Shown here: piece by piece, positions 981 to 22,056 of the stretch
Numbering within the stretch: the first letter of the stretch is position 1
Layout of the letters: the number at the start of each line of letters is the position of its first letter
Source: Candidatus Caccoplasma sp.
GTDB taxonomy: Bacteria; Bacteroidota; Bacteroidia; Bacteroidales; G3-4614
DNA length: 64,000 bases
NCBI GenBank assembly: GCA_045587545.1
Contig: JAZNCN010000028.1
Location: 79,045 to 143,044 of the forward strand
Reading direction: 5' to 3'
The notes under the pieces: model-generated
What the model was told of the DNA's origin: nothing
What the model saw: the letters and a program-made list of their open reading frames with translations, nothing else
The model's database searches: none
Position numbers and translations under genes: made by a program

Positions 981-1180
981 AGATAATATTAAACAAAGAG
1001 AATTTTGAATTAGAAGAAAATACATCTCTGTCGGAACTTTTGAATAGTGCTAATATTAATGTATTTAACGGTATTGCTATTGCTGTAAATAACTCAGTAG
1101 TAAGAAGAGATAATTGGAATAACACAATACTTAAAGATGGTGATAAAGTAACTATTATTAAAGCTGTTTGTGGCGGATAA
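977..1180 (+). CDS. thiS: sulfur-carrier protein ThiS
   Basis: 67-aa ORF ending in the diglycine ...AVCGG. ATGA start/stop overlap with thiD. Sits in the thi operon. Confidence 0.85.
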   Translation: MKIILNKENFELEENTSLSELLNSANINVFNGIAIAVNNSVVRRDNWNNTILKDGDKVTIIKAVCGG

Positions 1181-1188
1181 GAATGTGT

Positions 1189-1779
1189 ATGAAAACTATT
1201 ATTATAACCGAAGAAAGACCTCTTAAAAATGAATTTGAATATATTGAAGCAATACTTAATGAAGGTATTGATAATATACAAATACGCAAACCATTATTAT
1301 CTGATAATTATATTAGAGTAATACTTGATAATATAAAAGAGGAATATCATAGTAAACTAATTCTTAACGGAAAGTTTTCATTAGTCGATACATACAAAAA
1401 TATAGGTGGTATTCACACAAACAGCCACAACAAAATTATACCTCAAAATTTCAAAGGGATTAAGGGCTACTCGTGCCACACATTAAAGGAGATTGAGAGT
1501 AAAAAAGAGATATTTGACTATTTATTTTTAAGTCCAATATATGACAGCATTTCAAAAGAGGGCTACAAAGCTAAATTCTCTTTTACAGAACTTAAAAATG
1601 CTACTGAAAAAGGTATTGTTTCAGAGAAAGTGTATGCCCTTGGAGGAATTACACCCGATAAAATTACTCAAATTAAGGAATTAGGATTTGGTGGAGTTGT
1701 TTTTATGGGATATATATGGAATTCAAAGGATATTAACGAAATAATAAAAAAAATCAAACTCATTAAATCATATGTATAA
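1189..1779 (+). CDS. thiamine-phosphate synthase-like protein (ThiE/TenI paralog)
   Basis: ThiE/TenI-like TIM-barrel C-terminus (YALGGITPDKI...GFGGVVFMG). The ORF-track start at 1168 overlaps thiS, so the ATG at 1189 (MKTIIITEE) is preferred. The start is uncertain. Confidence 0.65.
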   Translation: MKTIIITEERPLKNEFEYIEAILNEGIDNIQIRKPLLSDNYIRVILDNIKEEYHSKLILNGKFSLVDTYKNIGGIHTNSHNKIIPQNFKGIKGYSCHTLKEIESKKEIFDYLFLSPIYDSISKEGYKAKFSFTELKNATEKGIVSEKVYALGGITPDKITQIKELGFGGVVFMGYIWNSKDINEIIKKIKLIKSYV

Positions 1780-2388
1780 TGTTACAATTCATAACTAATA
1801 AAACAGATAGATATAACCATATAGAAGGGGCAAAACTTGCTCTTGAAGGCGGCTGTAAATGGATTCAGTTGAGAATGAAGAATTACCCAAAGAGTGACAT
1901 AATTGAGATTGCCAATGAGATAAATAAATTATGCAAACAATACAATGCCATTCTTATAATTGATGACTACCCTGATATTGCAATGGAAGTAAAGGCCGAC
2001 GGAGTACATCTCGGGAAAAAAGATATGAATCCTATTGAAGCAAGGAATCTTATGGGCGAGGAATATATTATTGGAGGTACAGCAAATAGTTTTGATGATA
2101 TTCGTCTGCTTGTAGCTGAAAACGTTGATTATATAGGATTGGGGCCATACCGCTTTACAAAAACAAAAGAGAATCTATCCCCTATCTTAGGCATTAAAGG
2201 TTATGAAGATATAATTAACAAGTGTAAAGAATATAATTATAAAACTCCAATAGTAGCAATCGGTGGCATAGAAATAGAGGATATACCATCACTTGTTAAA
2301 ATGGGAGTAAACGGAGTGGCAATATCCGGCTACATTTTAAATAATGAAAATCCTACTCTAATAACTGAAAAAATAATAGATACATTAT

Positions 2389-2405
<17 letters not shown>
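1779..2405 (+). CDS. thiE: thiamine-phosphate synthase ThiE
   Basis: 208-aa ORF with ThiE-like features ([21 protein letters not shown]). Directly follows the paralog, with its start abutting the paralog's stop. Confidence 0.85.
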
Positions 2406-4925
<2,520 letters not shown>

Positions 4926-4926
4926 T

Positions 4927-6048
4927 ATGATTATGTTTAGTGAAGAGATAGATAAATATAGTTGGGAATCAATAAGTTCAAAGATATATTCAAAAACCAA
5001 TTATGACGTTGAGCGAGCTTTATCAAAAGATAAGATTGATATTGAAGATTTTATGGCTTTAGTGTCGCCTGCCGCCGAAAAGTATATTGAACCTATGGCG
5101 CAACGGAGCCAACACTATACTCAAGAGCGATTTGGCAAAACTATTCAAATGTATATACCTCTATATTTAACAAACTCATGCACAAATCATTGTGTATATT
5201 GTGGGTTTCAGCATAACAACCCTATTAAGAGAGTAATTTTAAACATAGAGGAGATTGAAGAGGAGTGTAAAGCAATTAAGGCATTAGCCCCATTTGATAA
5301 TATACTGCTTGTTACCGGAGAAAACCCAAGAGATGCAGGAGTTGAGTACCTTAATGAAGCTATTAAAATAGCAAGAAAATACTTTACAAATATATCAATA
5401 GAAGTAATGCCTATGAAAAGCGAAGAGTATTCTCTTTTAGCAAAAAACGGCCTAAACGGAGTTGTATGTTTTCAAGAGACTTACAATCGTAACAGATATA
5501 AAATATATCACCCAAAAGGTATGAAATCGAACTTTGAGTGGCGTCTTAATGGCTTTGACAGAATGGGTGAAGCAAAACTTCATAAAATAGGGTTAGGAGT
5601 TCTTATAGGGCTGGAAGATTGGAGAACAGATGTAACAATGATGGCTATACACCTAACTTATTTGAAAAAACATTACTGGCAAACAAAATATAGTGTTAAT
5701 TTTCCGAGGATACGACCCTCTAAGGGTGGATTTCAGCCAAATGTTGTAATGAGTAACAAACAACTTGCACAACTTATTTTTGCATACAGAATTTTTGATA
5801 AAGATTTAGATATATCTATTTCAACTCGCGAAGAGGTTAAATTCAGAGACAACATTCTTAAGTTGGGAGCAACATCATTTAGTGCAGGCTCAAAAACAGA
5901 ACCCGGCGGATATAAAACCCACCCTCAAGCATTAGAGCAGTTTGAGGTGAGCGACCAACGCACTCCGTCAGAAGTTGAAATGAGTATAAGAGCAAGAGGT
6001 TATGAAGTAGTCTGGAAAGATTGGGACAGAGCATTTGATACAATATGA
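4927..6048 (+). CDS. thiH: 2-iminoacetate synthase ThiH (radical SAM tyrosine lyase)
   Basis: 373-aa ORF with the radical-SAM CxxxCxxC motif (CTNHCVYCGF). Sits in the thi operon. Confidence 0.9.
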   Translation: MIMFSEEIDKYSWESISSKIYSKTNYDVERALSKDKIDIEDFMALVSPAAEKYIEPMAQRSQHYTQERFGKTIQMYIPLYLTNSCTNHCVYCGFQHNNPIKRVILNIEEIEEECKAIKALAPFDNILLVTGENPRDAGVEYLNEAIKIARKYFTNISIEVMPMKSEEYSLLAKNGLNGVVCFQETYNRNRYKIYHPKGMKSNFEWRLNGFDRMGEAKLHKIGLGVLIGLEDWRTDVTMMAIHLTYLKKHYWQTKYSVNFPRIRPSKGGFQPNVVMSNKQLAQLIFAYRIFDKDLDISISTREEVKFRDNILKLGATSFSAGSKTEPGGYKTHPQALEQFEVSDQRTPSEVEMSIRARGYEVVWKDWDRAFDTI

Positions 6049-6737
6049 ACAGATATAGCCGACAAATAATGTTACCCGAAATTGGTAACGATGGGCAGAA
6101 GAAAATTTCAGAAGCATCAGTTTTAATTATTGGTGTAGGCGGATTAGGTTCTCCTATATCAATATATTTGGCTGCTGCAGGAGTAGGAAAAATTGGGTTA
6201 GTTGATAATGATACCGTATCAGAAAGTAATCTACAACGACAAATACTTTATAACAATTCGCATATAGGAAAGAAAAAAGTATATGTTGCAAAAGAACAAC
6301 TTAAAGCAATATCTCCTGATATAGATATTGAAATATACGATACCCTTTTTTCAACTGAAAACGGTTATGATATTGCAAAAGAGTACGATATAATTATTGA
6401 CGGTTGCGACAACAACGAAACACGCTATTTAATTGATAGCGTATCAAAAGAGTTGAATATCCCATACATTTATGGAGCAATATCAGAATTTAAAGGACAA
6501 GTATCAGTTTTTAACTATAATGGCGGTGTATCTTACTCCGATATTTATCCAAAATCAGAAAATATAAATAGCAATACAGACATTGGAGTTATTGGTGCAT
6601 TACCAGGTATTGTGGGAAGTATTCAAGCAATGGAAGCAATTAAAATTATTACTTCAACGGGTGAAGTATTACAAAATAAACTGCTCACTATTGATGCTCT
6701 CACAATGGATTTTACTATCTTTGAGGTAAACCTCTAA
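6045..6737 (+). CDS. thiF: ThiF/MoeB-family adenylyltransferase
   Basis: 230-aa ORF. RYSRQI...GVGGLGS nucleotide-binding loop of E1-like enzymes. ATGA overlap with thiH. Confidence 0.8.
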   Translation: MNRYSRQIMLPEIGNDGQKKISEASVLIIGVGGLGSPISIYLAAAGVGKIGLVDNDTVSESNLQRQILYNNSHIGKKKVYVAKEQLKAISPDIDIEIYDTLFSTENGYDIAKEYDIIIDGCDNNETRYLIDSVSKELNIPYIYGAISEFKGQVSVFNYNGGVSYSDIYPKSENINSNTDIGVIGALPGIVGSIQAMEAIKIITSTGEVLQNKLLTIDALTMDFTIFEVNL

Positions 6738-8364: not shown

Positions 8365-8696
8365 TGTATAAGCCTATTAAGGTCTAAGAGACTGAAAGGC
8401 ATATATACATAATAGAGAAGATAAATAATGTATTTTTTTGTAAATAACTAATTTATACAAATCTTTTTGTATAAAAGAGAAAAAACTACAATAATAGTTT
8501 AAGTTAGGCGGAATTATTTAGGAATATTCAACATAAATAATTAATTTCGCAATGTCCCACGCTGAAAGGCTCTTTTTACAAGAGAGGTTGGGTGGGACAA
8601 GACATATTAAAAAGTATATTTATAACTCCTTGACAGATTTAAAGAATCTTAGTCGAATTATAGCAATCATTAAAGAATCCCTTGTTTTTATAAATT

Positions 8697-11600
8697 ATGG
8701 ATAAAAATGAGTGTAGAATATATTATACTACAACTAATAATAAGATTATCAATTTTGAACATGCTGAAATTGATGCTAAGATTATTTCACACATATATAA
8801 AGATAAAGGAGTAATTACCTTTGATAAACCAATTACTAAGATTCCTCATAGTGCTTTCTCTAGGTGTTCTACATTTACTAGTATTGAAATTCCTAATAGT
8901 GTAACTAGCATTGAAAATTCTGCATTTGAGTATTGCTCTGAACTTACAAGCGTTGAGATACCTGATGGTGTAAAAAGTATTGGTTGGTGGGCGTTCTTTA
9001 AATGTTCTAAACTTACAAATGTTGAGATTCCTAATAGTGTAACTAGCATTGGCAATGCTGCTTTTTTGTGTTGCTCTGGACTTACAAATGTTGAGATTCC
9101 TCAGGGTGTGAAAAGTATTGGCAAACGTGCCTTTGCAAAATGCTCTAAACTTAAAAGTATTATTATTTCTAAAAGTGTAGAGGAAATTGGAAATTATGTT
9201 CTTTCAGAGTGTACTGAACTTGAAAATATAATTATAAACACAGAAAATAAGAAATATGATTCCCGAGGGGATTGTAATGCCATAATAGATACAACGAATA
9301 ATATTCTTATTGCAGGATGTAAAAATACAATTATTCCTGATAATATTACGGAAATAGGAGAGCATGCATTTGAATTCTGTAAATTAAAAACAATAGTAAT
9401 TCCAAAAGGTGTTACAAAAATAGGGGATGGAGCATTTTTTTGTTGTGAATCTCTTAAAACTTTAGAGTTACCTCTTGGTATAAATGAAATAGGATTGAGT
9501 GCTTTTGAAAATTGTTCAGCTCTTGAAAGAATTATCATTCCTAATAGTGTGACTAAAATAGGAGATAGAGCATTTGCATTTTGTAAATCTTTAACTCAAT
9601 TTGATGGTAATCTTGCTCTTGGAGACAAAAGATGTTTAGTTATAGACGGGACTTTAGTTGCATTTGCAGCTGCAGGAGTTTCTGATTATATTTTTCCAAA
9701 AGAAATTTCTTCTTATAATCGAACTGTTTTTTATAATAATAAACTTAAGACCTTAAGAAAAACATTAGATGTTTCGATTGGAAAAGGAAATGATTCGCAC
9801 CAACAAACAAAAGTCAAAGGTTCCAATAATATACACACCAAAACATGTATTCCAATATGTAACAATAACTCAATTATAGATGATTATTTTCAGCAAATTT
9901 CATCTATTGCAAAAGAGGAAGAAAAATGCAAATGGATTAAATCAGGAACAAATGTAACAATTCAAGGATTAACTTTATCACGAGGTAATTTTTACCTAGG
10001 TAATTATTATAAAGTTAATGAATGTCCTAATGGAATCAAATACTCATCGAAAGATAAAATTATCTTATGGGCAACTATAAATCCTGAGCTTTCAATTTTA
10101 AAAGGAACTTTCCGAAAAGAAGAATATTTCCTTTCTTATTATGATTTATCTCCAGAAGGTCGTTTTATATATTTGTCTTGGTTAGCTAATTTAATTCTAA
10201 CAAAAGATGTACCTCATGATATTTTACTATTGCATATTTGTGGAATACAACTACGCTTGTTTTTAGATATTGAATCCTCTATAGAAGAAAAAGAAGATTT
10301 AATAAATTATTTAATTAACTTGAAATCAGAATTATCTGAAAAGTCTAGAATAGCATATTACATTGATGAAGTAATAGATATATCATTAGCTAAATTCTTT
10401 TTGGGTCAAGCAAATAGGTTTTCTATTGAAAGTTTTAATTTCTTTAAAACTCATAAATATATTGATACTACAATCTTTTCTAAAGATAGTAATGATTGTT
10501 TTAATTCTGATGTAATTTTTGATATATATGCTGATTTGTACTCTAATAGTCCTTTAGCTAAATGTAAAAATTGGTTTACTTTATTTTTTGAAAAAAATAA
10601 AAAATATTATAAGTCATTAGATTCAAGGTGCAAATATAAAGAAGTAGTTCAAATACCTAATGTTTTACCTTCTAATTCATATTTGTATATTCAAAAAGAT
10701 TATAACTTTTGTCTCTTTGAAACAATTAATTACTCACAATATGTTATTGAATTAATAGAGAAATATTTTAAGAAATATAATGGAGATTTTTTGTCATTTA
10801 AACAAATATATCCATATACTATAAACCAAAATTCTCCGTTGGTTTATTTTTCACTTCCTAAATATATAACAGAGAATGAATCTCAAATTTTATCAAATTT
10901 TAAAGATAGTCTTGAATCTATTGTAAATTGCAAAGCTAATGTAGTTAATTACGATACTATAGCAGAATTGTTTGGAATTAAATGTAATGAGGATTTTTTA
11001 ACAAGACCTGTTATAGAATGTATTATATCCGGTTTGAGAAATTTAGGATATGGTATAGTTCCTAATATTAAAGTTTCTTGTGAAGACTTAATTAAAACTA
11101 AAGAATCATGTGTCATATATAAATACCCTAAGTCTTTGAAACTTAGCATAGACCAAGAATTTAAATATGCAGAAATTCTATGTAAATTATTAGCAATAAT
11201 AATGCAAGGTACTGATGTAAATAATCAAGAATTGGACGCAGTTTATGAGAATTTCACAAAATTAACTAATAATAAACATAATATTATATATTTATATTCT
11301 TATTTTCTATGGCTTTCACAAAGAAAGAATGTTTTAAATAAGAGTATAAAACAAGAATTGTCAACACTTGCAAGGTTTTATAAAAAAATTTTTATACAAG
11401 TTATATTAAATGTCATAACTACTTCTGATTTTGTTAATGAAAAAAGAATTTTAGCACTAAATAAACTAATTCCATTCTTAGATGAAAATATAGAATCAGT
11501 ACATTCTTTAATACATAAGTCTCTAGTTGGTGATTTTGATTCTGTTGTAACTGATAAATCCGATAATAAATCAGTTAGTATAAGTCAAGATATTGAACTT

Positions 11601-11930
11601 GATAGTAATAAGTTAAATACATTTAGAGAACAAACAAACGAAAGTCATTTACTGCTGTCTAAAATATTTGCCATAGATAACGAAGAAGAGTATTCGGAAA
11701 GTCAAAATTCTAGTATAAACATAACGAAGGAGATTCTTATAAAGATGTTAGAAAAGGATGTGTGGAATTATAACGATTTTTCACAATTATGTCATAACTA
11801 CGAAGTTTTACCCGGTTCAATACTTGAGCAAATTAATGATTATGCATATGAAATTGTTGATGATGTCATTGCAGAAGAAATAGATGATAAAATATATATT
11901 AATACAGAGTATAAAGATAAACTTATATGA
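8697..11930 (+). CDS. sngA: BspA-type LRR / TerB-N / TerB-like / TerB-C fusion protein (SngA-like component of a Shango-type cassette)
   Basis: 1077-aa uninterrupted ORF with no signal peptide. About aa 47-345 hold roughly 12 repeats of about 23 aa of the IPNSVTSIGNxAFxxCSxLTxV type (BspA LRR). About aa 410-525 look TerB-N-like (KWIKSGTNVTIQGLTLSRGNFYLG, YYDLSPEGRFIYLSWLAN). The C-terminus looks TerB-C-like (ELDSNKLNTFREQTNESHLLLSKIF, LPGSILEQINDYAYE). Confidence 0.75.
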   Translation: MDKNECRIYYTTTNNKIINFEHAEIDAKIISHIYKDKGVITFDKPITKIPHSAFSRCSTFTSIEIPNSVTSIENSAFEYCSELTSVEIPDGVKSIGWWAFFKCSKLTNVEIPNSVTSIGNAAFLCCSGLTNVEIPQGVKSIGKRAFAKCSKLKSIIISKSVEEIGNYVLSECTELENIIINTENKKYDSRGDCNAIIDTTNNILIAGCKNTIIPDNITEIGEHAFEFCKLKTIVIPKGVTKIGDGAFFCCESLKTLELPLGINEIGLSAFENCSALERIIIPNSVTKIGDRAFAFCKSLTQFDGNLALGDKRCLVIDGTLVAFAAAGVSDYIFPKEISSYNRTVFYNNKLKTLRKTLDVSIGKGNDSHQQTKVKGSNNIHTKTCIPICNNNSIIDDYFQQISSIAKEEEKCKWIKSGTNVTIQGLTLSRGNFYLGNYYKVNECPNGIKYSSKDKIILWATINPELSILKGTFRKEEYFLSYYDLSPEGRFIYLSWLANLILTKDVPHDILLLHICGIQLRLFLDIESSIEEKEDLINYLINLKSELSEKSRIAYYIDEVIDISLAKFFLGQANRFSIESFNFFKTHKYIDTTIFSKDSNDCFNSDVIFDIYADLYSNSPLAKCKNWFTLFFEKNKKYYKSLDSRCKYKEVVQIPNVLPSNSYLYIQKDYNFCLFETINYSQYVIELIEKYFKKYNGDFLSFKQIYPYTINQNSPLVYFSLPKYITENESQILSNFKDSLESIVNCKANVVNYDTIAELFGIKCNEDFLTRPVIECIISGLRNLGYGIVPNIKVSCEDLIKTKESCVIYKYPKSLKLSIDQEFKYAEILCKLLAIIMQGTDVNNQELDAVYENFTKLTNNKHNIIYLYSYFLWLSQRKNVLNKSIKQELSTLARFYKKIFIQVILNVITTSDFVNEKRILALNKLIPFLDENIESVHSLIHKSLVGDFDSVVTDKSDNKSVSISQDIELDSNKLNTFREQTNESHLLLSKIFAIDNEEEYSESQNSSINITKEILIKMLEKDVWNYNDFSQLCHNYEVLPGSILEQINDYAYEIVDDVIAEEIDDKIYINTEYKDKLI

Positions 11931-13252
11931 ATAAACCAATTAAACCAAAAGAACGAGAAACAATAATACAATCATTGAGAAGTGGTGTCGTTCCAAGAAT
12001 GGGATTACAACATATTCAAGTAGGACGTAGTAATGAGTTAAAATCATTTATTAAAGATATCGATATAATATCAGAGGGTGGTTCTTCTTTTCGATTTGTA
12101 ATTGGAGAGTATGGTTCAGGTAAAACATTCTTCCTGTCTTTAGTTAGGAGTATTGCTTTAGAAAAAGGACTAGTAACAATACATGCGGATTTATCCCCAA
12201 CAAAACGATTCTATGGTTCGGATGGTAAATCTAGACTGTTATTGTCAGATATGATTGGTAATTTATCTACTCGGACAAAACAAGACGGAAATGCTCTTCG
12301 AAATATTCTTGAGAAATTTATATCTATTGCTAAAGAAGAGGCAATTTCAAAAAATAAAACTGTATCATCCATAATTTCTAATAAACTTAGCGAACTTAAC
12401 GAATATACAGGTGGATATAATTTTATCTCTGTTATAAAAAAATTCTATGAAGCTTTAGAATCAGGAAATGATGAGTTAAAAGATTGTGCTATAAATTGGC
12501 TTAAGGCTGGATATACAACTAAGTCAGAAGCATATAAAGATTTAGGGGTTAAAAGTTTTATTGATGATAGTTCATTTTTTGATACCCTTATTTTGTATTC
12601 TGTTTTAGTAAAAAAAGCAGGATATAAAGGATTACTTATTTGTATTGATGAAATGGTAAATTTGTACAAAATTACTAATACGGTTTCTCGCAAGGCAAAT
12701 TATGAGATAATATTAACAATGTTAAACAATACTCTACAATGTTCTTTGTCAAATATTGGTTTTGTAATGTGTGGAACACCAGAATTTATGACTGATACAA
12801 ATAGAGGTCTATATAGTTATGAGGCTTTAAGATCTAGACTTGCAGAGAATAGCTTTTCAAGAAAACTAGGAGTTGTTGATTTTAATTCGATTGTGTTAAG
12901 ATTGGCAAGTCTTACTAAAGAAGAAATATATATTTTGCTATGTAACCTTAGACATGTTTTTGCAAGTGGGGTAGAAGAAAAATATTTAGTTCCTGATAAT
13001 GCTTTAATAGCATTTTTAAATCATTGTTCTAATAAAATCGGAGATAGCTATTTTAGGACACCTAGAACAACAATTAAAGGATTTATAGATTTGTTATCTA
13101 TTTTAGAACAATATCCAGAGTATGAATGGAATGATATTATTGATTCTGTAGAAGTTACAAAAGATATAGAACCTTCAATGATTGAATTAAATACTACTGA
13201 TGAATCTATGTCAAATTCAATAGATGACGAGTTTGCTAGTTTTAAGATATAA
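11927..13252 (+). CDS. sngB: DUF2791/BrxD-like P-loop ATPase (SngB-like)
   Basis: 441-aa ORF. ATGA overlap with the upstream gene. Walker A GEYGSGKTFF, Walker B LLICIDEM. The N-terminal RSGVVPRMGLQHIQVGR segment is typical of this ATPase family. Confidence 0.75.
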   Translation: MNKPIKPKERETIIQSLRSGVVPRMGLQHIQVGRSNELKSFIKDIDIISEGGSSFRFVIGEYGSGKTFFLSLVRSIALEKGLVTIHADLSPTKRFYGSDGKSRLLLSDMIGNLSTRTKQDGNALRNILEKFISIAKEEAISKNKTVSSIISNKLSELNEYTGGYNFISVIKKFYEALESGNDELKDCAINWLKAGYTTKSEAYKDLGVKSFIDDSSFFDTLILYSVLVKKAGYKGLLICIDEMVNLYKITNTVSRKANYEIILTMLNNTLQCSLSNIGFVMCGTPEFMTDTNRGLYSYEALRSRLAENSFSRKLGVVDFNSIVLRLASLTKEEIYILLCNLRHVFASGVEEKYLVPDNALIAFLNHCSNKIGDSYFRTPRTTIKGFIDLLSILEQYPEYEWNDIIDSVEVTKDIEPSMIELNTTDESMSNSIDDEFASFKI

Positions 13253-13262
13253 ATAAATCACA

Positions 13263-15452
13263 ATGAATCACAAATCTTCATCATTTGAATTACTTAATAG
13301 TAAAGTCCAGAAATGGATATGGAATCAAGGTTGGACCTCCTTAAAAGAAATTCAAGAAAACTCCATACCAGTAATTTTAAAAGGGGATAGTGATGTTATT
13401 ATTAGTGCTGAAACTGCTGGAGGTAAAACAGAAGCTGTATTTTTACCAATATTGTCAAAAATAGAAGAATTTAACGAACATAATTGTAATGTTATATATA
13501 TAAGTCCATTAAAAGCTTTAATTAATGATCAGTATAGACGTCTTTTAGATATGACGAATGATTTGAGTGTTAAAGTAACACCATGGCATGGCGATGTTAA
13601 TCAAAGTACAAAAAGTAAATGGATTAAAGAACCAACAGGTATTTTGATAATAACACCTGAATCATTAGAATCATTTCTTATAAATAAACATTCAAAGATA
13701 AAAGTGTTGTTCTCTAAAGTAATGTATATTGTGGTTGATGAATTCCATTCATTTATTGGGAATGAAAGAGGGAAACAACTACAATCATTATTATCTAGAA
13801 TTGAATCTATAACGAATAGAATTATACCAAGAGTTGCTATGAGTGCAACTTTTTCAAATTATGAATCAGTTAAGGATTTTCTTAGACCAGATAAAAAGTT
13901 GATGTGTGTAATACCATCACGAGGAGAGAGTAAGCAAAATGTTCGTTTGGTAATAAAAGCATATTCAAATTCATATAATGAAGATAGTGATAATGTTGTA
14001 CATAATGATATTAGTGAAGATATTTCTAATGAAATTTTTACCAAATTAAGAGGAAGCAATAATTTGGTATTTACCAATAGTAGATCTGAAGCAGAATTTT
14101 ATTCATTTTTATTGAGAAAGAAATGTGAAGACTTAGGTGTTCCTAATGAATTCCGAGTACATCATGGAAGTCTTTCTAAAGTAGAAAGGGAAAGTATTGA
14201 AAAGGAACTTCAAATAGGAAGTGTCCCGATAACTGCTTTTTGTACATCTACACTTGAATTAGGAGTTGATATAGGCAAAGTTAAATCTATTGCACAAATA
14301 GGAGTAGTTTCATCTGTCTCTGGATTAAAACAACGTTTAGGGCGCTCAGGTAGGCGTAATGAACCAGCAGAACTTCGTGTCTTTTCAATAGAAAAAGGCA
14401 CTGGCGATATTTTATCTGATTTAAGAACAAATTTAGTTCAAAATATTGCTGTAATTGAATTACTTCTTGAACATAAATACGAAAGTTATAATATAAATAA
14501 TTATCACTTATCGACTCTAATACAGCAAATACTTTCTGTTATTGCATCATATGGAAGTTTTTATCCAGAAGAAGGTTGGAAACTTTTATGTAAGAATGGT
14601 GCATTTAAAAACATAACACCAAAACTTTTTTTGAGTGTATTAAAGTCACTTGGACAAAAAAAAGTAGTTTCTCAACTCAATAATGGTCAGATAATTATAG
14701 GGAAAGAAGGAGAATATATATTGAGTGATTTAAATTTTTACACAGCATTTATTTCTTTTAAAAACTTTTCAGTTATAGATAATGCTAGTTCAAAAAAAAT
14801 AGGGGAAATTGGTATTGTCCCAAATATTAATGATACATTGTTACTTGCTAGTAGGCAATGGGAAGTAATAAATATAGATAAAAAAAGAAAGATAATATAT
14901 GTAGAGGCAACAAATTATTCGGGTAGTGTATATTTTAATGTGAATGATGGTATCGATGTTGATAGAATAATTACAAGGAAAATGAAAGAAATATATTCTA
15001 CGAATAACACATATTTATATCTTGATAAAAAAACAAATGCTCAGCATGAATTAGATATAGCAAGAAGTGTTTATTGTAATAATGGTTTAGAAAATAATTC
15101 GATAATTAATTATAAAGATATTTCAGATGATGATTCAGACGAAATTTCAATAATTTTCACATGGGAAGGAACAAAAGTAAACAGAACAATATCATTACTT
15201 AATGAATATTTTTCAGGGAGAAAAACAAAGTATAATGAATTAGTAATAATAGGAATTAGCGAAGAGGATATACATAATATTCTAAGCAATAAAAAACCTT
15301 CAGGAGAGGAACTAGCATCTTTGTTAAGAAGGGAAGACAAGGAAAAACAAAAATATGATTATTTATTATCTAATCAACTCCTCAATATAGAATATGGTAA
15401 TACATATATAGATATTGAGAATGCTTGGGATTATCTCAGCTCCATTGTATAA
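13263..15452 (+). CDS. sngC: Lhr-like DEAD/DExH-box helicase (SngC-like)
   Basis: 729-aa ORF. Motif I AETAGGKTEA, Ia YISPLKALINDQ, II VVDEFH, III MSATFSN, VI QRLGRSGRR. There is a 10-nt gap to the ATPase gene. Confidence 0.8.
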   Translation: MNHKSSSFELLNSKVQKWIWNQGWTSLKEIQENSIPVILKGDSDVIISAETAGGKTEAVFLPILSKIEEFNEHNCNVIYISPLKALINDQYRRLLDMTNDLSVKVTPWHGDVNQSTKSKWIKEPTGILIITPESLESFLINKHSKIKVLFSKVMYIVVDEFHSFIGNERGKQLQSLLSRIESITNRIIPRVAMSATFSNYESVKDFLRPDKKLMCVIPSRGESKQNVRLVIKAYSNSYNEDSDNVVHNDISEDISNEIFTKLRGSNNLVFTNSRSEAEFYSFLLRKKCEDLGVPNEFRVHHGSLSKVERESIEKELQIGSVPITAFCTSTLELGVDIGKVKSIAQIGVVSSVSGLKQRLGRSGRRNEPAELRVFSIEKGTGDILSDLRTNLVQNIAVIELLLEHKYESYNINNYHLSTLIQQILSVIASYGSFYPEEGWKLLCKNGAFKNITPKLFLSVLKSLGQKKVVSQLNNGQIIIGKEGEYILSDLNFYTAFISFKNFSVIDNASSKKIGEIGIVPNINDTLLLASRQWEVINIDKKRKIIYVEATNYSGSVYFNVNDGIDVDRIITRKMKEIYSTNNTYLYLDKKTNAQHELDIARSVYCNNGLENNSIINYKDISDDDSDEISIIFTWEGTKVNRTISLLNEYFSGRKTKYNELVIIGISEEDIHNILSNKKPSGEELASLLRREDKEKQKYDYLLSNQLLNIEYGNTYIDIENAWDYLSSIV

Positions 15453-15735
15453 TTAATGATTATTACACTTAATTAATACTATGGAATACTTATTTGGGCA
15501 GTCTGTCCATAAAGCTATAAACTTAGGAGAAAGAATAAATATAGAGAAATAATGTATCAAAATTAAATAAAAAGATTATACTGTATTTATTCGTAAATAA
15601 ATGTAATGAAGTTTATTTTATAGTAAAAAAATATACTAATTACTAATATATATTATAATGATGTTGATAACTTAATAAGAATATTATATATAAATACAAG
15701 AATTTATTTTAATTTTGAGAAAAAGGAAAGGGAGT

Positions 15736-15837
15736 ATGTCAAATATAGTATATTTATTAGGAGCAGGAGCTAGTTATGGAAACAAAAATAGAGTATATTA
15801 TTATAATAATAGAGCAAATAATCAACCAGAAAGATGA
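15736..15837 (+). CDS. 33-codon mini-ORF (MSNIVYLLGAGASYGNKNRVYYYNNRANNQPER) coupled to the AbiH-like gene
   Basis: Preceded by an atypical purine-rich SD-like aaaggaaagggagt. Its TGA overlaps the downstream ATG (ATGA at 15834-15837). It could be a gene remnant and is not in the ORF track (<60 aa). Confidence 0.25.
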   Translation: MSNIVYLLGAGASYGNKNRVYYYNNRANNQPER

Positions 15838-16787
15838 ATGAAAATACACTTATAATAGGAAATGGATTTGATTTAGATTTAGGTTTAAAAACAAATTATT
15901 TAGATTTTGCAGATTCAACATATTGGCCAAAGTTAGAAAGTATATATAAACCATACTTAAAATCAAAATTAGAAGAAAGGATATCAGATAATCCTTGTTG
16001 GTTTGACATAGAAGAAGAACTACTTAAATATGCAACTATTGATAAATCTAATAAGACACTAAAAGATTACGCTTCATATAATAATAAAATAGATCAAGAT
16101 TTCTTTAATAAATTATTATCTGGCTTTTGCGAATATTTAGAAAATGAAGAAAAAAAAGATATAATAAAAGATTCATATGCAGCAAAAGTTTTAAGTAGTG
16201 TAGTATTAAATGGATATTTTGAGCATATATACTCATTTAATTATACTAATTTAAACACTTTCGCAAAACGCTTAAATATAACAAAAGATATAAATTATAA
16301 TCATATTCATGGTAAGATAAAAGATAGGTCAATTATTCTTGGAGTAAATGAAAGTCAAAAACTTATATCCAACTATGAGTTTTTATACAAATCATCTAGC
16401 CCATATTATAAAAGCAATAATCTTGACAGTGATTTATTTAATTCCAAAGAAGTTGTAATATTTGGATTGTCATTTGGACATATTGATTTTCAATATTTTG
16501 ACTATTTTTTCAAATCAATATTAGATGCTAAGATAATTCCCTCAGATAAAAAGAAACATATAACTATTTTTACCAAAGATGATAATTCAAGAATGGAAAT
16601 TTTAAAAAAACTTAGAGATAAGCAAATTATAGTTACTGATTTATACCAGAAATCTTATTTTGAAATAATAAAAACTACAGACCCTAAAGATATAGATAAA
16701 TTAGACTCATTTATTAAAAGACTAAATAATAATAGCATTGATAAATTTAATGAAAATTTATCTAAATTAGAGAGAATGATATACTAA
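15834..16787 (+). CDS. AbiH-like abortive-infection family protein
   Basis: 317-aa ORF. The N-terminal LIIGNGFDLDLGLKTNYLDF matches the hallmark N-terminus of the AbiH family. Very AT-rich. Sits next to the Shango-type cassette. Confidence 0.7.
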   Translation: MNENTLIIGNGFDLDLGLKTNYLDFADSTYWPKLESIYKPYLKSKLEERISDNPCWFDIEEELLKYATIDKSNKTLKDYASYNNKIDQDFFNKLLSGFCEYLENEEKKDIIKDSYAAKVLSSVVLNGYFEHIYSFNYTNLNTFAKRLNITKDINYNHIHGKIKDRSIILGVNESQKLISNYEFLYKSSSPYYKSNNLDSDLFNSKEVVIFGLSFGHIDFQYFDYFFKSILDAKIIPSDKKKHITIFTKDDNSRMEILKKLRDKQIIVTDLYQKSYFEIIKTTDPKDIDKLDSFIKRLNNNSIDKFNENLSKLERMIY

Positions 16788-16880
16788 TAATTTTTTTTGA
16801 TTATTAATTGGAAAGATTATTATTAATTCAAAATTTAAAAAGGGGATTAAACCCTGAAGGATATAAACTTTTATAACACA

Positions 16881-16906
16881 ATAAAGCCCCAAGTTTGGGG
16901 CTTTAT
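16881..16906. terminator. bidirectional hairpin terminator (ataaagcccca-agtt-tggggctttat)
   Basis: 11-bp perfect stem between the convergent AbiH-like (+) and nrdJ (-) genes. Confidence 0.6.
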
Positions 16907-16938
16907 TCGTATTATTGTTTTTGTGATTTGGCAATTAA

Positions 16939-16976: not shown

Positions 16977-19511
16977 TTATCCGCATTTTGAGTATCCGCA
17001 AGTTGGACAGCGCAAACAGCCTTCTTGGTAGATTAGTGTTTCGCCACATTTAGGACATGTTTGTCCGGTTGCTTTTGTTCCACTGGGAATATATTTCTTT
17101 AATGCGCGCTCTACACCATTTTTCCAAGTATTGATTGATTCGCTATCAAGTTGCAAACTTGATACCAACTTCATTACTTTGTCTATTGGCATTCCGTAGC
17201 GTAATACTCCTGATATTAGTTTTGCATAGTTCCAATACTCGGGATCAAACTTTTCTGATAGTCCTTCAACGGTTGTTTTATATCCACGTTTGTTACGGAA
17301 TTGGAAGTCGTAGTGTTTGTTTCCGTCTGCATCGGTTACTTTGATGATTTTACCTCGCTCTACGCTCTTTGGTATCAACAAGCCCTCTTCATCATCGGCA
17401 AGTCCGGTAAAGATTTCGTATGGGCGTCCGTTTTGTAATCCGATGAATGCAATCCATTTTTCGCGATTGTTTTGGAAACGTACTACATCTGCATCTAACT
17501 CTGCAGGGCGTACTAAATCGTGGTGTACTACCTCTTGTTCGCATGGGCATGGAGTTTTTTTGTCGTCCATTGATATTAGAACTCCTGCTCGTGAGCCATC
17601 GCGATATACGGTACAGCCTTTACAGCCCGATTTCCATGCTTCTACGTATAGTTTGTTTACCAACTCTTCTGTTACATCTGATGGAAGGTTGATTGTTACG
17701 CTGATTGAGTGGTCAACCCACTTTTGTACGCGTCCTTGCATTTTTACTTTTTCCAACCAATCTACATCGTTTGATGCTGCTTTGTAGTAAGGCGATTTTG
17801 ATACCAACTCTTCAATCTCCTCGGGTGTGTAACGCTCTTTTTTCTCGTAACCGTTTATCTCCATCCAAGTTAGGAATTTATGGTGGAATACGGTGTATTC
17901 TTCAAATGCGTCTCCGTTCTCATCGGTAAAGTCAACGTGAACATCAGTGTCGTTGGGGTTTACTTTGCGACGACGACGATATACGGGCATAAACACCGGC
18001 TCAATTCCTGATGTTGTTTGACTCATCATACTTGTTGTTCCTGTTGGCGCAATTGTCAAACATGCAATGTTACGACGACCGTATTTTACCATATCTGAAT
18101 ACAAATCTGCATCTGCCTCTTTTAGACGGTTGATGAATGGGTTGTTCTCTTCGCGTTTTGCATCGAATATCTCAAATGCTCCACGCTCTTGCGCCATCTC
18201 AACTGATGATTTGTATGCTGCTATTGCTAGTGCTTTGTGAACACTCTCTGAGAAGTCTGTAGCCTCGGGAGTTCCGTATTGCAAGCCCATGGCTGCTATC
18301 ATATCGCCTTCGGCTGTTGTTCCTACTCCTGTACGACGTCCTTTTAATGTTTTAGTGCGTATTTTGTTCCACAAACATAACTCTGTATTTTTTACCTCGT
18401 CTGTTTCGGGGTCTGAGTTTATCTTCTCAATTATCTTTTCGATTTTCTCCATTTCAAGGTCGATGATATCGTCCATGATACGTTGTGCTACGCGTACGTG
18501 TGATTTAAATAGGTCAAAATCGAAATATGCTTCGGGGGTGAATGGGTTTATTACGTATGAATAAAGGTTAATTGCCAACAAACGACAGCTGTCGTATGGA
18601 CATAGGGGTATCTCTCCACATGGGTTTGTTGAGATTGTACGGAAACCAAGGTCGGCATAACAATCGGGTACCGACTCACGTGAGATTGTATCCCAAAACA
18701 GTACTCCAGGCTCTGCTGATTTCCATGCGTTATGTACAATTTTTTCCCATATTGCTTTTGCATCTACCTCTTTTGTTACTGTTGGATTATCTGAGTCAAC
18801 AGGGTATTTTTGCATAAATGGTTTGCCCTCTGTTGCTGCTTGCATAAATTCATCTGTTATGCGTACTGACACGTTAGCTCCTGTTACTTTGCCCTCGGTC
18901 ATTTTTGCATCGATGAACGATTCTGAGTCAGGGTGATTAATTGATACACTTAACATTAAGGCTCCACGGCGTCCATCTTGTGCTACCTCGCGTGTTGAGT
19001 TTGAGTAACGCTCCATAAAGGGCACTAAGCCTGTTGATGTTAAAGCTGAGTTTTTTACGGGTGAACCTTTGGGACGTATGTGTGATAGGTCGTGTCCTAC
19101 TCCTCCGCGACGTTTCATTAATTGTACTTGCTCCTCATCAATTTTCATAATGCCGCCGTATGAATCGGCATTGCCCTCCATTCCAATCACAAAACAGTTA
19201 GAGAGTGAGCCTACTTGATAATTATTTCCGATTCCACTCATAGGACTTCCTTGTGGTATTATATAACGGAAGTTACGGAAGAGATCCATTAATTGCTCTT
19301 CTGTCATGGGGTTCGCATATTTTTTCTCTATGCGTGCTACCTCTTTTGCCAAACGACGATGCATATCTTCAGGTGTCTTTTCGTAAATGTTTCCGAAAGA
19401 GTCCTTCAATGCATATTTGTTTACCCATACTCTGGCTGCCAATTCGTCGCCTCCAAAGTACTCAATTGTTGCCTTTACGGCTTCATCGAAAGAATAAATC
19501 TTCTGACTCAT
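16977..19511 (-). CDS. nrdJ: adenosylcobalamin-dependent ribonucleotide reductase (class II)
   Basis: 844-aa ORF with conserved RNR blocks (NPCGEI, active-site region). C-terminal Zn-ribbon CPKCG...CPTCG. All + strand ORFs inside it are shadow ORFs. Confidence 0.9.
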   Translation of the reverse strand: MSQKIYSFDEAVKATIEYFGGDELAARVWVNKYALKDSFGNIYEKTPEDMHRRLAKEVARIEKKYANPMTEEQLMDLFRNFRYIIPQGSPMSGIGNNYQVGSLSNCFVIGMEGNADSYGGIMKIDEEQVQLMKRRGGVGHDLSHIRPKGSPVKNSALTSTGLVPFMERYSNSTREVAQDGRRGALMLSVSINHPDSESFIDAKMTEGKVTGANVSVRITDEFMQAATEGKPFMQKYPVDSDNPTVTKEVDAKAIWEKIVHNAWKSAEPGVLFWDTISRESVPDCYADLGFRTISTNPCGEIPLCPYDSCRLLAINLYSYVINPFTPEAYFDFDLFKSHVRVAQRIMDDIIDLEMEKIEKIIEKINSDPETDEVKNTELCLWNKIRTKTLKGRRTGVGTTAEGDMIAAMGLQYGTPEATDFSESVHKALAIAAYKSSVEMAQERGAFEIFDAKREENNPFINRLKEADADLYSDMVKYGRRNIACLTIAPTGTTSMMSQTTSGIEPVFMPVYRRRRKVNPNDTDVHVDFTDENGDAFEEYTVFHHKFLTWMEINGYEKKERYTPEEIEELVSKSPYYKAASNDVDWLEKVKMQGRVQKWVDHSISVTINLPSDVTEELVNKLYVEAWKSGCKGCTVYRDGSRAGVLISMDDKKTPCPCEQEVVHHDLVRPAELDADVVRFQNNREKWIAFIGLQNGRPYEIFTGLADDEEGLLIPKSVERGKIIKVTDADGNKHYDFQFRNKRGYKTTVEGLSEKFDPEYWNYAKLISGVLRYGMPIDKVMKLVSSLQLDSESINTWKNGVERALKKYIPSGTKATGQTCPKCGETLIYQEGCLRCPTCGYSKCG

Positions 19512-19652
19512 CTCTGTGTTTTGTTAAGTGTTTTAATTAATTGTTTTGTTACTCTCTGTTTTGTTTTGATTGTATAGTGATTTTAGTAGTGCAAGTTTAG
19601 ATATAATATTTTAATTCACAAAATTATTAACTATAAAGTTTTGAACATTTTT

Positions 19653-19776
19653 AAAAGTTTTCCAAAACAAAATATTATACACTTAATTATCAATATATTA
19701 TGATTTTTAAAAATTCAAAAAGTTTCCCAAAAAGAAATTTTGTTCAAAATTTTCAAAAATAAAAGTTTTCCAAACC
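19653..19776. promoter_or_regulatory. three copies of AAAAGTTT(T/C)CCAAA in the nrdJ / nitroreductase divergent intergenic region
   Basis: Copies at 19653-19668, 19718-19732 and 19761-19776, each preceded by a ttcaaaa/tttaaaa stretch. An inverted repeat atatgtt-aaaaaa-catat follows the third copy. Confidence 0.35.
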
Positions 19777-19876
19777 GATATGTTAAAAAACATATATTAC
19801 CAAAGACAATTAAACAAATATATTGCATATTTGATTTATATTATGTAATTTAGTATCACATTTAAACTATGTATAT

Positions 19877-20620
19877 ATGAGAAATTTTGATTTTTCAAAT
19901 AGAAGGACTATCAGAACTTATTCTGACAAGAATATCTCTTCTGATTTACTTAATAATATGTTAGAGATAGCATCAAGAGCTTCTACAACCGGGAATATGC
20001 AACTTTATAGTGTTGTGATTACAAGAGAAAGCCAACGTAAAGAGCTACTTTCTCCCTTACACTTTAATCAGCCTATGATTAAAAATGCGCCTGTTGTGTT
20101 AACTTTTTGTGTTGATTATAACAGATTTTCAAAATGGTGTGAGTGTAGTAATGCCAAACCGGGATATAATAATTTTCACTCTTTTATCTCTGCGGCTCTT
20201 GATACCACAATTTATGCACAACAATTTTGTGCTATTGCCGAGAGTAAAGGTTTAGGTATATGCTATATAGGTACTACTACTTATAATGCAAAGGGGATTA
20301 TTGATGTATTGAATTTACCTAAACTAACAGTACCATTGATTACTATTACATTGGGATATCCCGAAGTTATACCTGCTTTGACTGATAGATTACCTGTTAG
20401 TGGTATAGTTCATAATGAAGTTTATAACGATTACTCGCCTAAGATGATAAAGGATATTTACTCATATAAAGAGAGTCTTGACGAAAGCAAGAAATTTATT
20501 GAAGAGAATAACAAAGAGACTCTTGCTCAAATTTTCACTGATATAAGATATAAGGAGAGCGACAACATTCATTTTTCAGAGGAGTTTATGAATGTTCTTA
20601 AATTTCAAGGTTTTCTCTAA
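19877..20620 (+). CDS. nitroreductase family protein
   Basis: 247-aa ORF. The N-terminal RRTIRTYSDK...ASRASTTGNMQ is typical of the NAD(P)H-flavin nitroreductase fold. Confidence 0.8.
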   Translation: MRNFDFSNRRTIRTYSDKNISSDLLNNMLEIASRASTTGNMQLYSVVITRESQRKELLSPLHFNQPMIKNAPVVLTFCVDYNRFSKWCECSNAKPGYNNFHSFISAALDTTIYAQQFCAIAESKGLGICYIGTTTYNAKGIIDVLNLPKLTVPLITITLGYPEVIPALTDRLPVSGIVHNEVYNDYSPKMIKDIYSYKESLDESKKFIEENNKETLAQIFTDIRYKESDNIHFSEEFMNVLKFQGFL

Positions 20621-20653
20621 TAAGTTTGACATAAATAGCATATAACAAAAAAA

Positions 20654-20668
20654 AGAGCCAATGGCTCT
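20654..20668. terminator. bidirectional terminator hairpin agagcc-aat-ggctct flanked by A and T tracts
   Basis: Lies between the convergent nitroreductase (+) and dnaA (-) genes. An A8 tract lies 5' and a T8 tract 3'. Confidence 0.65.
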
Positions 20669-20673
20669 TTTTT

Positions 20674-22056
20674 TTATCTTCTTAATGTCTCTTCTATCTC
20701 TTGAACATTTGATTTGATTGTTTTGTCAATCTCAATGAGGTCAGATATTGTTTTGCATGCATGCAATACTGTTGCATGATCTTTTTTACCTAACTCGGAT
20801 CCTATTCTTGTTAATGAGTTATCAGTATATTTTTTAGATAGATACATTGATATTTGGCGCGCTTGCACAATCTCTCTTTTACGGCATTTTGCTTGTAATA
20901 ATTGTACATCCATATTATAATATGCGCAAACTTTCTCTTTTATCAAATCTATTGTTATCTGTTTCTTCTCTATATTTACGCTTGTTGATAGAACTTTAGC
21001 GGCAAGGTCAAGATTTATCTCTTTATTCATTGTTGTTGCTCGGAACATCAATGAGGCCAACACTCCTTCAAGGTCGCGAACATTCTCTGATACATTCTTT
21101 GCCACAAATTCTGCAACATCGTCAGTGATTGGCAAACCGTCTCTGATAATTTTATTTTTTAAGATATTAAATCTTAATTCATAATCAGGACGCTCTACTT
21201 CGGCAGATAATCCCCATTTGAAACGAGATATCAAACGTGGTAATATTCCACCTAACGATACCGGAGGACGATCTGAAGACAATATCAATTGTTTATTGTT
21301 TTGATGCAAATGATTAAAAATATGGAAGAAGGTGTTTTGTGTCTGTGTTTTATCAGCCATATCTTGTATATCGTCAATCATCAATACATCAAGACTTTGA
21401 TAAAAATTTATAAAGTCAGGTACTGTATTGCTTCGTGTTGCATTAACAAATTGCAATTGAAATAAGTGTGATGATATATATAGTACACGCGCACGAGGAT
21501 TTAACTCTTTTATCTTGTGCCCTATTGCCTGCATTAAGTGAGTTTTACCAACGCCTGACTCTCCGTGTATAAATAAAGGATTAAATGCTGTTTTTCCGGG
21601 AGATTGTGCTATTGATAATCCTGCTGTTCGTGCCAACAAGTTACTTTCACCTGCATAATAGTTCTCAAACTTATAATTTGAGTTTAATTGTGGATCTAAA
21701 TCTTCATATACATTCTGCTTGAATATATTAGGAACATTTTTTGAAAATTTTACTCCACTTGTTTGTGTTACAGGAGCAACATCAACAGTTGCTGCAGGAT
21801 TCTCCACCACTCCTGCCCGATACATTAATCTTACATCATTACCATATACTTTTGTAAGAGTTTTACTTATCAAATCAAGATAATGCTCCTCTAAGTATTC
21901 ACAGAAAAACTGTGTTGGTACTCCAAGCGTAAGAATGTTATCTTCATATTTGAGCACACTTATCGGAGCAAACCAACTATTATATTGTTGTTCGCCAATA
22001 TTGTCTTTTATAATTCCGAGACAATGTGCCCATTTATTTTCACACTCAATTGTCAT
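20674..22056 (-). CDS. dnaA: chromosomal replication initiator protein DnaA
   Basis: 460-aa ORF. AAA+ Walker A GESGVGKTHL, Walker B MIDDIQ. C-terminal DnaA-box-binding domain (DHATVLHA). Confidence 0.95.
   Translation of the reverse strand: MTIECENKWAHCLGIIKDNIGEQQYNSWFAPISVLKYEDNILTLGVPTQFFCEYLEEHYLDLISKTLTKVYGNDVRLMYRAGVVENPAATVDVAPVTQTSGVKFSKNVPNIFKQNVYEDLDPQLNSNYKFENYYAGESNLLARTAGLSIAQSPGKTAFNPLFIHGESGVGKTHLMQAIGHKIKELNPRARVLYISSHLFQLQFVNATRSNTVPDFINFYQSLDVLMIDDIQDMADKTQTQNTFFHIFNHLHQNNKQLILSSDRPPVSLGGILPRLISRFKWGLSAEVERPDYELRFNILKNKIIRDGLPITDDVAEFVAKNVSENVRDLEGVLASLMFRATTMNKEINLDLAAKVLSTSVNIEKKQITIDLIKEKVCAYYNMDVQLLQAKCRKREIVQARQISMYLSKKYTDNSLTRIGSELGKKDHATVLHACKTISDLIEIDKTIKSNVQEIEETLRR

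Follow-up and report, generated by a model that had tools for sequence, protein, structure and literature searches.

The 64,000-nt stretch of Candidatus Caccoplasma sp. DNA analysed here, which we call the window, carries at positions 8697–15452 a three-gene cassette that is very probably a genuine anti-phage defence operon of the Shango family (SngA-SngB-SngC), its protective function being read in this case from the genes alone. As a member of its family the cassette is ordinary; what is unusual about it is the N-terminus of SngA, where an array of leucine-rich repeats (LRRs) on a flexible linker appears, in this clade, to have replaced an N-terminal membrane anchor. We regard the LRR-fused SngA as a new domain-architecture variant of the known Shango system. 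Our literature search found no paper naming all three Sng proteins with an LRR form and no Shango study in Bacteroides.

Operon layout and family assignment

The cassette consists of three open reading frames (ORFs).

8697–11930, + strand: ORF1, sngA, 1077 amino acids
11927–13252, + strand: ORF2, sngB, 441 amino acids
13263–15452, + strand: ORF3, sngC, 729 amino acids

An earlier, sequence-only reading of this DNA had described the three co-directional ORFs as packed into one operon, and we found the packing exactly as described: the stop codon of sngA and the start codon of sngB overlap in an ATGA at 11927–11930, and a spacer of 10 nt (ATAAATCACA, 13253–13262) separates sngB from sngC. The fraction of G plus C (GC) is 0.27–0.29 across sngA, sngB and sngC, compared with 0.34 elsewhere in the window, and ORFs of 441–1077 codons at 27–29% GC cannot have arisen by chance. 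All three products are full length in comparison with their homologues. Every peptide motif quoted earlier for ORF1 to ORF3 was located at the implied position. In SngB these are the Walker A motif GEYGSGKT (residues 60–67; 12104–12127) and the Walker B motif LLICIDEM (residues 236–243; 12632–12655). In SngC they are the superfamily 2 (SF2) helicase motifs I (AETAGGKT, residues 49–56; 13407–13430), II (DEFH, residues 159–162; 13737–13748), III (SAT, residues 194–196; 13842–13850) and VI (QRLGRSGRR, residues 357–365; 14331–14357). The Walker motifs of SngB and the SF2 motifs of SngC are all intact.

The same reading had called the triad Shango-type in a Bacteroidales-like genome, and both statements agree with our searches. 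The PADLOC models for SngA, SngB and SngC matched ORF1, ORF2 and ORF3 with E-values of 8.7e-29, 1.6e-163 and 7e-223, respectively, and the Pfam profiles gave TerB_C (1.4e-10) in ORF1, BrxC_BrxD (formerly DUF2791; 1.2e-139) in ORF2 and, in ORF3, DEAD and Helicase_C above their cutoffs with a weak WH_Lhr. As to the host, the 90%-identity cluster to which the ribonucleotide reductase (RNR) of the window belongs is named Coprobacter sp./Bacteroidales, and the 64-kb window shows an enrichment of TAnnTTTG, the −7 promoter motif of Bacteroidota.

We then considered what the ATPase and the helicase are related to. SngB matched PADLOC BrxD (1.3e-47, 161 bits) in addition to SngB (543 bits), as well as NCBIfam BREX_BrxD at 4.5e-46, where its 158 bits lie below the 350-bit cutoff; sequence searches of the Protein Data Bank (PDB) with the single protein and with a profile returned nothing meaningful and no solved relative. 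SngC matched its PADLOC model over its full length (740 bits) and BrxHI less strongly (9e-111, 369 bits). Its best PDB sequence matches were YprA/MrfA (6znp) and Lhr (5v9x), and its best NCBIfam match, to a ligase-associated DNA-damage-response DEXH helicase, reached 226 bits against a cutoff of 850. Because the NCBIfam scores for BrxD and for the Lhr-like helicase all fall below their cutoffs, we take SngB and SngC to be relatives of those equivalogs and not members. Judged by these similarities, SngB is a predicted BrxD-like AAA+ ATPase and SngC a predicted Lhr/BrxHI-like SF2 DExH helicase.

Type 2 BREX (bacteriophage exclusion), or Pgl (phage growth limitation), also has a tightly linked and homologous ATPase–helicase pair, so that one could see in ORF2 and ORF3 the remnant BrxD-BrxHI pair of such a system, with ORF1 as unrelated cargo. 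The matches to BrxD and BrxHI are what this idea would explain, but we consider it very improbable. The Shango models score two- to threefold higher in bits for both proteins, and the partner of the pair here is a TerB-family protein whose translation is coupled to that of ORF2 and which is everywhere inherited together with it. Furthermore, the cassette has thiamine-pathway, esterase, outer-membrane-protein-like (OMP-like), AbiH and RNR genes for neighbours, and the window contains no further ORF longer than 850 amino acids; thus the methyltransferase PglX as well as PglZ, BrxC and PglW are absent.

The cassette can be compared most directly with the Shango of E. coli and P. aeruginosa PA14, for which the copy on the E. 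coli plasmid pHH107-3 (L005) served as our reference; its triad is annotated as a TerB N-terminal domain protein of 769 amino acids, an ATP-binding protein and a DEAD/DEAH helicase. The two share protein families, gene order and tight packing, with SngB 55% and SngC 38% identical and the SngA bodies collinear through the TerB_N-like segment, the middle region, the TerB-like segment and TerB_C. They differ in that the SngA cores are only 21% identical, that the plasmid protein has a hydrophobic anchor missing from the window SngA, and that the latter, with about 300 residues of LRRs and an 80-residue linker, is 1077 residues long. The window copy also differs in its host phylum, Bacteroidota, and in being a chromosomal locus with no insertion sequence elements. 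The description of the window cassette as very divergent is therefore apt for SngA and does not hold for SngB and SngC.

The SngA protein and its relatives

The segments of sngA are as follows.

8697–9611, + strand: BspA-type LRR array, residues 1–305, about 8–10 repeats of 23 amino acids (Pfam LRR_5, 2.3e-60)
8865–9179, + strand: 138-bp tandem duplication of two LRR units, about 2 copies at 77–83% identity (Tandem Repeats Finder; direct-repeat family D1)
9612–9860, + strand: putative disordered linker, residues 306–388 (AlphaFold2 predicted local distance difference test, pLDDT, below 50 for residues 305–388)
9930–10376, + strand: TerB_N-like domain, about residues 412–560 (Pfam PF13208, 9.1e-4, below cutoff; alignment to the E. 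coli TerB_N; pLDDT about 90)
11157–11531, + strand: TerB-like helical domain, about residues 821–945 (alignment to the Pfam TerB region, residues 518–624, of E. coli SngA)
11577–11927, + strand: TerB_C domain, residues 961–1076 (Pfam PF15615, 1.4e-10, 42 bits against a 26.3-bit cutoff)

The body of the protein is recognizably SngA. The PADLOC model PDLC03958 aligned residues 403–1076 with its positions 30–523 of 528 (93% of the model), and, owing to the LRR extension, no more than 63% of the target is covered; residues 1–399 matched no PADLOC model. Residues 411–1076 are collinear with residues 93–767 of the SngA of an E. coli IncF plasmid (BLASTP, 21% identity, E = 1e-23), a 769-residue protein that carries Pfam TerB_N (1.6e-46), TerB (residues 518–624) and TerB_C. 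Of the two segments that had been proposed in ORF1, the TerB_C one (ELDSNKL...SKIF at residues 967–991; LPGSILEQINDYAYE at 1038–1052) stands above the Pfam cutoff, whereas the TerB_N one (KWIKSG...GNFYLG at residues 412–435; YYDLSPEGRFIYLSWLAN at 481–498) does not by Pfam alone, with 19.5 bits against a cutoff of 25. Its assignment draws instead on the PADLOC SngA model, which spans the segment, and on the collinear alignment with the TerB_N-annotated E. coli protein. Pfam TerB_N is present in 36 of 40 profile-retrieved SngA relatives, and we consider the segment of ORF1 likely to be homologous to TerB_N.

The body that follows the linker was modelled confidently (pLDDT about 90). Foldseek with the model of ORF1 returned LRR structures and one further entry, 2h5n (probability 0.97–0.99), and nothing for TerB_N, the middle region or TerB_C; we take 2h5n to be TerB-like and assign its match to residues 821–945.

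Besides LRR_5, the Pfam matches in ORF1 are to LRR_8, TerB_N and TerB_C only. The LRR array matched the PDB sequences 4fs7 and 4gt6 at 1e-46 to 1e-50, and both were also the top structures in Foldseek. The low model confidence of residues 306–388 indicates that the connection between the array and the SngA body is probably disordered. We found no signal peptide in ORF1 and, by hydropathy, no hydrophobic segment (maximum Kyte–Doolittle value over 19 residues, 1.51 for the whole protein and 0.35 within its first 80 residues), and this SngA is predicted to be soluble and cytoplasmic. Opposite the duplication at 8865–9179, the homologues from Muribaculaceae show a gap of about 100 residues. Relative to them, the array in the window has recently grown by about four repeats through the 138-bp tandem duplication.

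Every part of the three proteins is under purifying selection. Among four Muribaculaceae loci, the ratio of non-synonymous to synonymous substitution rates (dN/dS) was 0.19 for the LRR array, 0.16–0.31 for the other SngA domains, 0.08 for SngB and 0.16–0.19 for SngC. The value for the array shows that it is constrained and functional and not debris. At the same time, no segment differs more between the window and the Muribaculaceae loci than the array, whose proportion of non-synonymous differences (pN) is 0.40 as against 0.12–0.25 for the core.

Given that LRR_5 surface proteins are extremely abundant in gut Bacteroidales, the fusion might be suspected of having arisen artificially in assembly or gene calling, or of being a pseudogene in decay in which the gene of a BspA-like surface adhesin was joined to a truncated sngA. 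A search with full-length ORF1 indeed returned thousands of LRR-only surface proteins with eight true homologues among them, and a separate LRR_5 gene lies near one Shango locus (L015). This suspicion is scarcely credible, however, in view of the uninterrupted reading frame, the missing signal peptide, the dN/dS of the array and the recurrence of the fusion in eight 90%-identity clusters from independent assemblies (NCBI, ENA and Logan) in addition to the window itself.

We searched 1.84 billion representatives with a profile of the SngA core and obtained 1998 relatives, 991 of them at E ≤ 1e-10. Among the best 150 of the 1998, the LRR fusion occurs in a single 50%-identity cluster, which stands for eight homologues. 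These eight, each a 90%-identity cluster of about 980 residues with LRR_5 and TerB_C, are the best other SngA homologues of ORF1. By a simple hydropathy scan, 65 of 110 full-length SngA representatives (about 59%) begin with a hydrophobic segment. The E. coli plasmid SngA, for example, starts with MELLKFLAAIFVIYLLFFRKKKRK and has the anchor MELLKFLAAIFVIYLLFF followed by RKKKRK.

The closest non-LRR relatives of the window SngA core are long, membrane-anchored proteins from gut metagenome-assembled genomes (MAGs) of Bacteroidaceae, Oscillospiraceae and Acutalibacteraceae (P0121, L008, L009 and L013). They share the gut habitat with the window and are collinear with its SngA core over the full length at 27–29% identity (SngB, 67%; SngC, 57%). 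Where ORF1 has its LRR array, these proteins share a non-LRR N-region of 200–450 residues, and their N-termini form one or two hydrophobic helices. The earlier reading had spoken of an extra sensor-like domain; the domain is a BspA-type LRR_5 array, and it takes the place of the usual hydrophobic anchor and is not an addition. Pfam domains of 40 long SngA-like representatives also included DNA_gyraseA_C (a beta-pinwheel) in two, TGS in one and LprI in one, which look like further exchangeable modules on the SngA scaffold.

Shortened forms of SngA, encoded ahead of intact SngB and SngC, come from other gut Bacteroidales loci.

L014, 6644–7330: 228 amino acids, hydrophobic helix and TerB_C only
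L015, 3985–4557: 190 amino acids, hydrophobic helix and TerB_C only
L010, 6746–8044: 432 amino acids, helix and C-terminal half, without TerB_N

TerB_C is the sole SngA domain retained in the minimal forms and is kept in every variant seen; together with the varied N-termini, this marks it as the invariant module beside sngB and the rest of SngA as exchangeable. In L010 and L014 the nucleotide homology starts inside sngA, near the TerB_C end, and continues onward from there, which suggests recombination inside sngA. A small LRR_5 gene (L015, 32–562, − strand) lies 3.4 kb upstream of one minimal-SngA Shango, on the opposite strand, and the N-terminal cap it encodes is similar to the one in ORF1 (ILQYTTTDGK...SHTYTDIGKIIF). 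Separate LRR_5 genes of this kind are plausible donors for the LRR fusion.

The three Shango proteins differ in pace. SngA of the window is 62–65% identical to that of the LRR clade, 27–45% to those of other gut MAGs and 21% to that of E. coli, and the corresponding values for SngB are 86%, 67–76% and 55%. By this comparison SngA is the fastest-evolving of the three and diverges far faster than SngB.

These data bear on what the array might do. The operon could be Shango with the array serving, in place of the lost transmembrane anchor, to localise or tether SngA by binding a protein of the host envelope or membrane, or acting as an autoinhibitory or oligomerisation domain. The array sits exactly where the sister clade has its hydrophobic anchor and N-region, it is under purifying selection with no excess of non-synonymous change compared with the rest of SngA, and BspA-type LRRs, including those matched in the PDB, are typically protein-protein interaction modules of envelope proteins. 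On the other hand, the array is the most divergent part of the protein and its repeat number changed recently, features more easily reconciled with a determinant of specificity than with a fixed tether of a housekeeping kind. We regard the tethering or autoinhibitory role as a serious, though less likely, alternative.

Co-conservation, mobility and neighbouring genes

The order SngA-SngB-SngC is kept in all related loci with enough DNA. Neither this co-conservation nor the outcome of the profile searches refutes the earlier reading. The exact sequences of ORF1 to ORF3 are recorded from one NCBI contig of 250 kb. The triad occurs with the same order and tight spacing in L001–L004, L006–L010 and L013–L016 and on the E. 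coli plasmid (L005); L011 is a short fragment with the SngA-SngB pair only. A scan of reference genomes placed the other LRR-type loci in Muribaculaceae MAGs. The LRR-type cassette occupies three chromosomal sites, namely that of the window, one between ddl and ileS and one between tig and clpP, and the sngA-sngB overlap is kept at the latter two. At the nucleotide level, the window and the Muribaculaceae loci are homologous over 8685–15457 alone, that is, over the three genes, and the GC content of the cassette is below that of its flanks in the window and in every Muribaculaceae LRR-type locus. Homology limited to three genes, several sites and low GC point to a discrete, horizontally moving three-gene cassette, and the Shango operon of the window appears to have been acquired horizontally by a Bacteroidales chromosome.

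Consistent with a patchy distribution, all 80 metagenomic loci with a homologous dnaA-nitroreductase-RNR neighbourhood had neither Shango nor AbiH beside RNR. In this empty-site comparison the RNR relatives were at most 80% identical and synteny extended over the dnaA side only, the OMP-like ORF having no relatives on metagenome contigs. A search of the window for tRNA genes found a single one, 20 kb from the cassette.

The LRR-Shango cassette of one Muribaculaceae MAG (L003) has a cas9-cas1-cas2 module about 7.4 kb upstream (1–2633), and AbiH lies downstream of the cassette in the window, so that both loci have a defence context. The genes between the cas module and Shango in L003 are lysC, lysA, a hydrolase gene, a murF-like gene and ddl. 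Another observation concerns the membrane-anchored type: positions 2–7752 of L008 (Oscillospiraceae MAG) and 1713–9465 of L009 (Bacteroidaceae MAG) are 98.8% identical over 7.75 kb, an alignment made up of essentially the Shango cassette alone. Such near-identity across phyla reflects either a very recent transfer or a binning error.

The distribution of the cassette also bears on whether the operon could be a Ter-associated 'DNA-processing' module for DNA repair or stress response, whose Lhr/MrfA-like repair helicase would deal with damage to host DNA. The best NCBIfam and PDB matches of ORF3 would suit such a function, and TerB was first described in tellurite resistance (cited in 10.1101/2022.05.11.491447). 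However, the NCBIfam match stays far below its cutoff while the SngC model scores 740 bits; the characterised neighbours include no ligase gene and no ter cluster (no terZ, A, B, C, D or E, and no TerD/TerC genes); and the cassette is patchily distributed, poor in GC and present at several insertion sites, with AbiH or Cas9 in its neighbourhood. Moreover, homologous triads are anti-phage by experiment (10.1101/2022.05.11.491447; 10.1101/2022.11.11.516204). A repair function is therefore improbable.

Three features flank the cassette.

8365–8696, + strand: upstream leader of 332 nt (RNA fold z = −4.4 relative to shuffled sequence)
15834–16787, + strand: AbiH-family abortive-infection gene (GC 0.225; Pfam AbiH 3.2e-25, above cutoff; PADLOC AbiH 4.8e-6)
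16880–16907, + strand: terminator-like hairpin with a 12-pair stem, between AbiH and the convergent RNR gene

The leader contains a GTCCCAC...GTGGGAC hairpin at about 8554–8597. Neither the leader nor the intergenic regions matched Rfam, and the leader had no blastn match in any fetched locus. A scan for sigma-70 promoters yielded no more sites than shuffled sequence did.

The AbiH gene is preceded by a TAATTTTG box at 15710–15717. It does not lie beside the cassette in related loci and is separate island cargo, independent of the Shango unit. A 33-codon ORF (15736–15837; MSNIVYLLGAGASYGNKNRVYYYNNRANNQPER) overlaps its start by ATGA. The GAGAS-type N-terminus of this ORF looks like the beginning of SIR2- or AbiH-like proteins, and the ORF could be a remnant or encode a coupled leader peptide.

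Farther downstream, dnaA (20674–22056, − strand) lies about 4 kb from the island, and the dnaA-nitroreductase-B12-RNR block of 16977–22056 is syntenic in relatives of 75–80% identity. The cumulative GC skew reaches its maximum at about 16 kb, the point where the genes change orientation as well; this could be a sign of the replication origin region or mere coding-strand bias. On the other side of the cassette, 153–6737 holds a complete row of thiamine-biosynthesis genes (thiD, two TMP-TENI/thiE paralogues, thiG, thiC, a thiH-like and a thiF-like ORF, the last two presumptive names given from the translations alone). This row is followed by an esterase gene and an OMP-like ORF of 238 amino acids with no Pfam match and no relatives in the metagenome scan.

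Possible mode of action and significance

Shango protects E. coli and P. aeruginosa from phages (10.1101/2022.05.11.491447; 10.1101/2022.11.11.516204). The only conjecture offered for its TerB protein is 'membrane surveillance', an idea based chiefly on the fact that TerB proteins associate with membranes. For the other two proteins the relatives are informative. BrxD is an ORC/Cdc6-type (origin recognition complex-type) AAA+ ATPase that is tightly linked to BrxHI and has been proposed as its loader or activator, BrxHI being an SF2 helicase with winged helix-turn-helix, HAS-barrel and Lhr C-terminal-domain-like domains (PMC12839542). SngC belongs with BrxHI, DruE and DpdJ to a defence-specific SF2 clade (PMC12278908).

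Borrowing the helicase-loader idea from type 2 BREX (PMC12839542), we propose that SngA would be a sensor and scaffold that docks SngB through its TerB_C end. We assign this coupling to TerB_C because the domain is kept in every variant seen and because the stop codon behind it overlaps the start of sngB. SngB would be an ORC/Cdc6-type AAA+ ATPase that loads or activates SngC, and SngC an effector helicase whose substrate would be phage DNA or RNA:DNA replication intermediates, phage replication being blocked as a result. The LRR array would most likely supply an infection-sensing or partner-binding surface. The direct results are the homologies and the architecture, from which we infer the sensing protein, the loader-helicase relation, the nucleic-acid target and the role of the array.

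As a whole, we consider it probable that the locus is best explained as an acquired Shango operon next to an independent AbiH gene, operating by a sensor-loader-helicase scheme with the LRR array as its input module. The scheme itself we put forward tentatively, with doubts that slightly outweigh our confidence in it.

Several points weigh against this explanation. The mechanism of Shango was still called unclear in September 2025 (10.1101/2025.09.30.679545), and no phage assay of a Bacteroidota Shango, this locus included, is on record. The operon encodes no nuclease or obvious toxic effector, which leaves unexplained how a helicase alone would stop a phage. No region-wide positive selection was detected on the array by dN/dS, so that the role of a sensor in an arms race lacks direct support. 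The anchor itself is suggested by a crude hydropathy scan and not by a dedicated predictor. In ORF1, Pfam TerB_N stays below its cutoff and Pfam TerB was not detected directly. As to mobility and expression, we found no integrase and no flanking repeats that would explain how the cassette moves, only AT-rich chance repeats, and we placed no promoter in the 332-nt leader, the + strand of which has no perfect TAnnTTTG.

A sharper version of the scheme, which we hold to be rather unlikely, is that LRR-SngA is a cytoplasmic pattern-recognition receptor. Direct binding of a phage protein by the LRR array would then license, via the TerB_C adaptor, an ORC/Cdc6-like SngB ring to load SngC onto phage replication intermediates. 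If true, this would amount to the logic of nucleotide-binding LRR receptors (NLRs), an LRR sensor plus an oligomerising ATPase, built from unrelated parts, and the variable SngA N-terminus (membrane anchor, LRR or absent) would be the input module of Shango. The likeness to NLRs and to signal transduction ATPases with numerous domains (STAND) is one of function alone, in that a cytoplasmic LRR belongs to an immune system with an oligomerising P-loop ATPase. There is no homology: Pfam found no NACHT or NB-ARC domain in the Shango proteins of the window, the ATPase is a separate protein of the ORC/Cdc6-type AAA+ class, and the LRRs are of the BspA (LRR_5) type.

The swap of an input domain in a defence system will not surprise a specialist. 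Shango is nevertheless a validated anti-phage system, and the series of SngA architectures gives an experimental handle on its trigger and its action. Ahead of SngB-SngC pairs that are nearly identical, nature provides a membrane-anchored full-length SngA, a soluble LRR-fused one (the window) and a membrane helix with TerB_C. This series makes it testable whether TerB_C is the smallest part of SngA to be coupled with the ATPase and helicase, whether membrane anchoring is dispensable in some lineages and whether the N-terminus is an exchangeable input module. The soluble LRR domain would be a practical bait for the Shango trigger or partner. The locus also adds a Shango candidate for gut Bacteroidales, in which phage-host biology matters to work on the microbiome.

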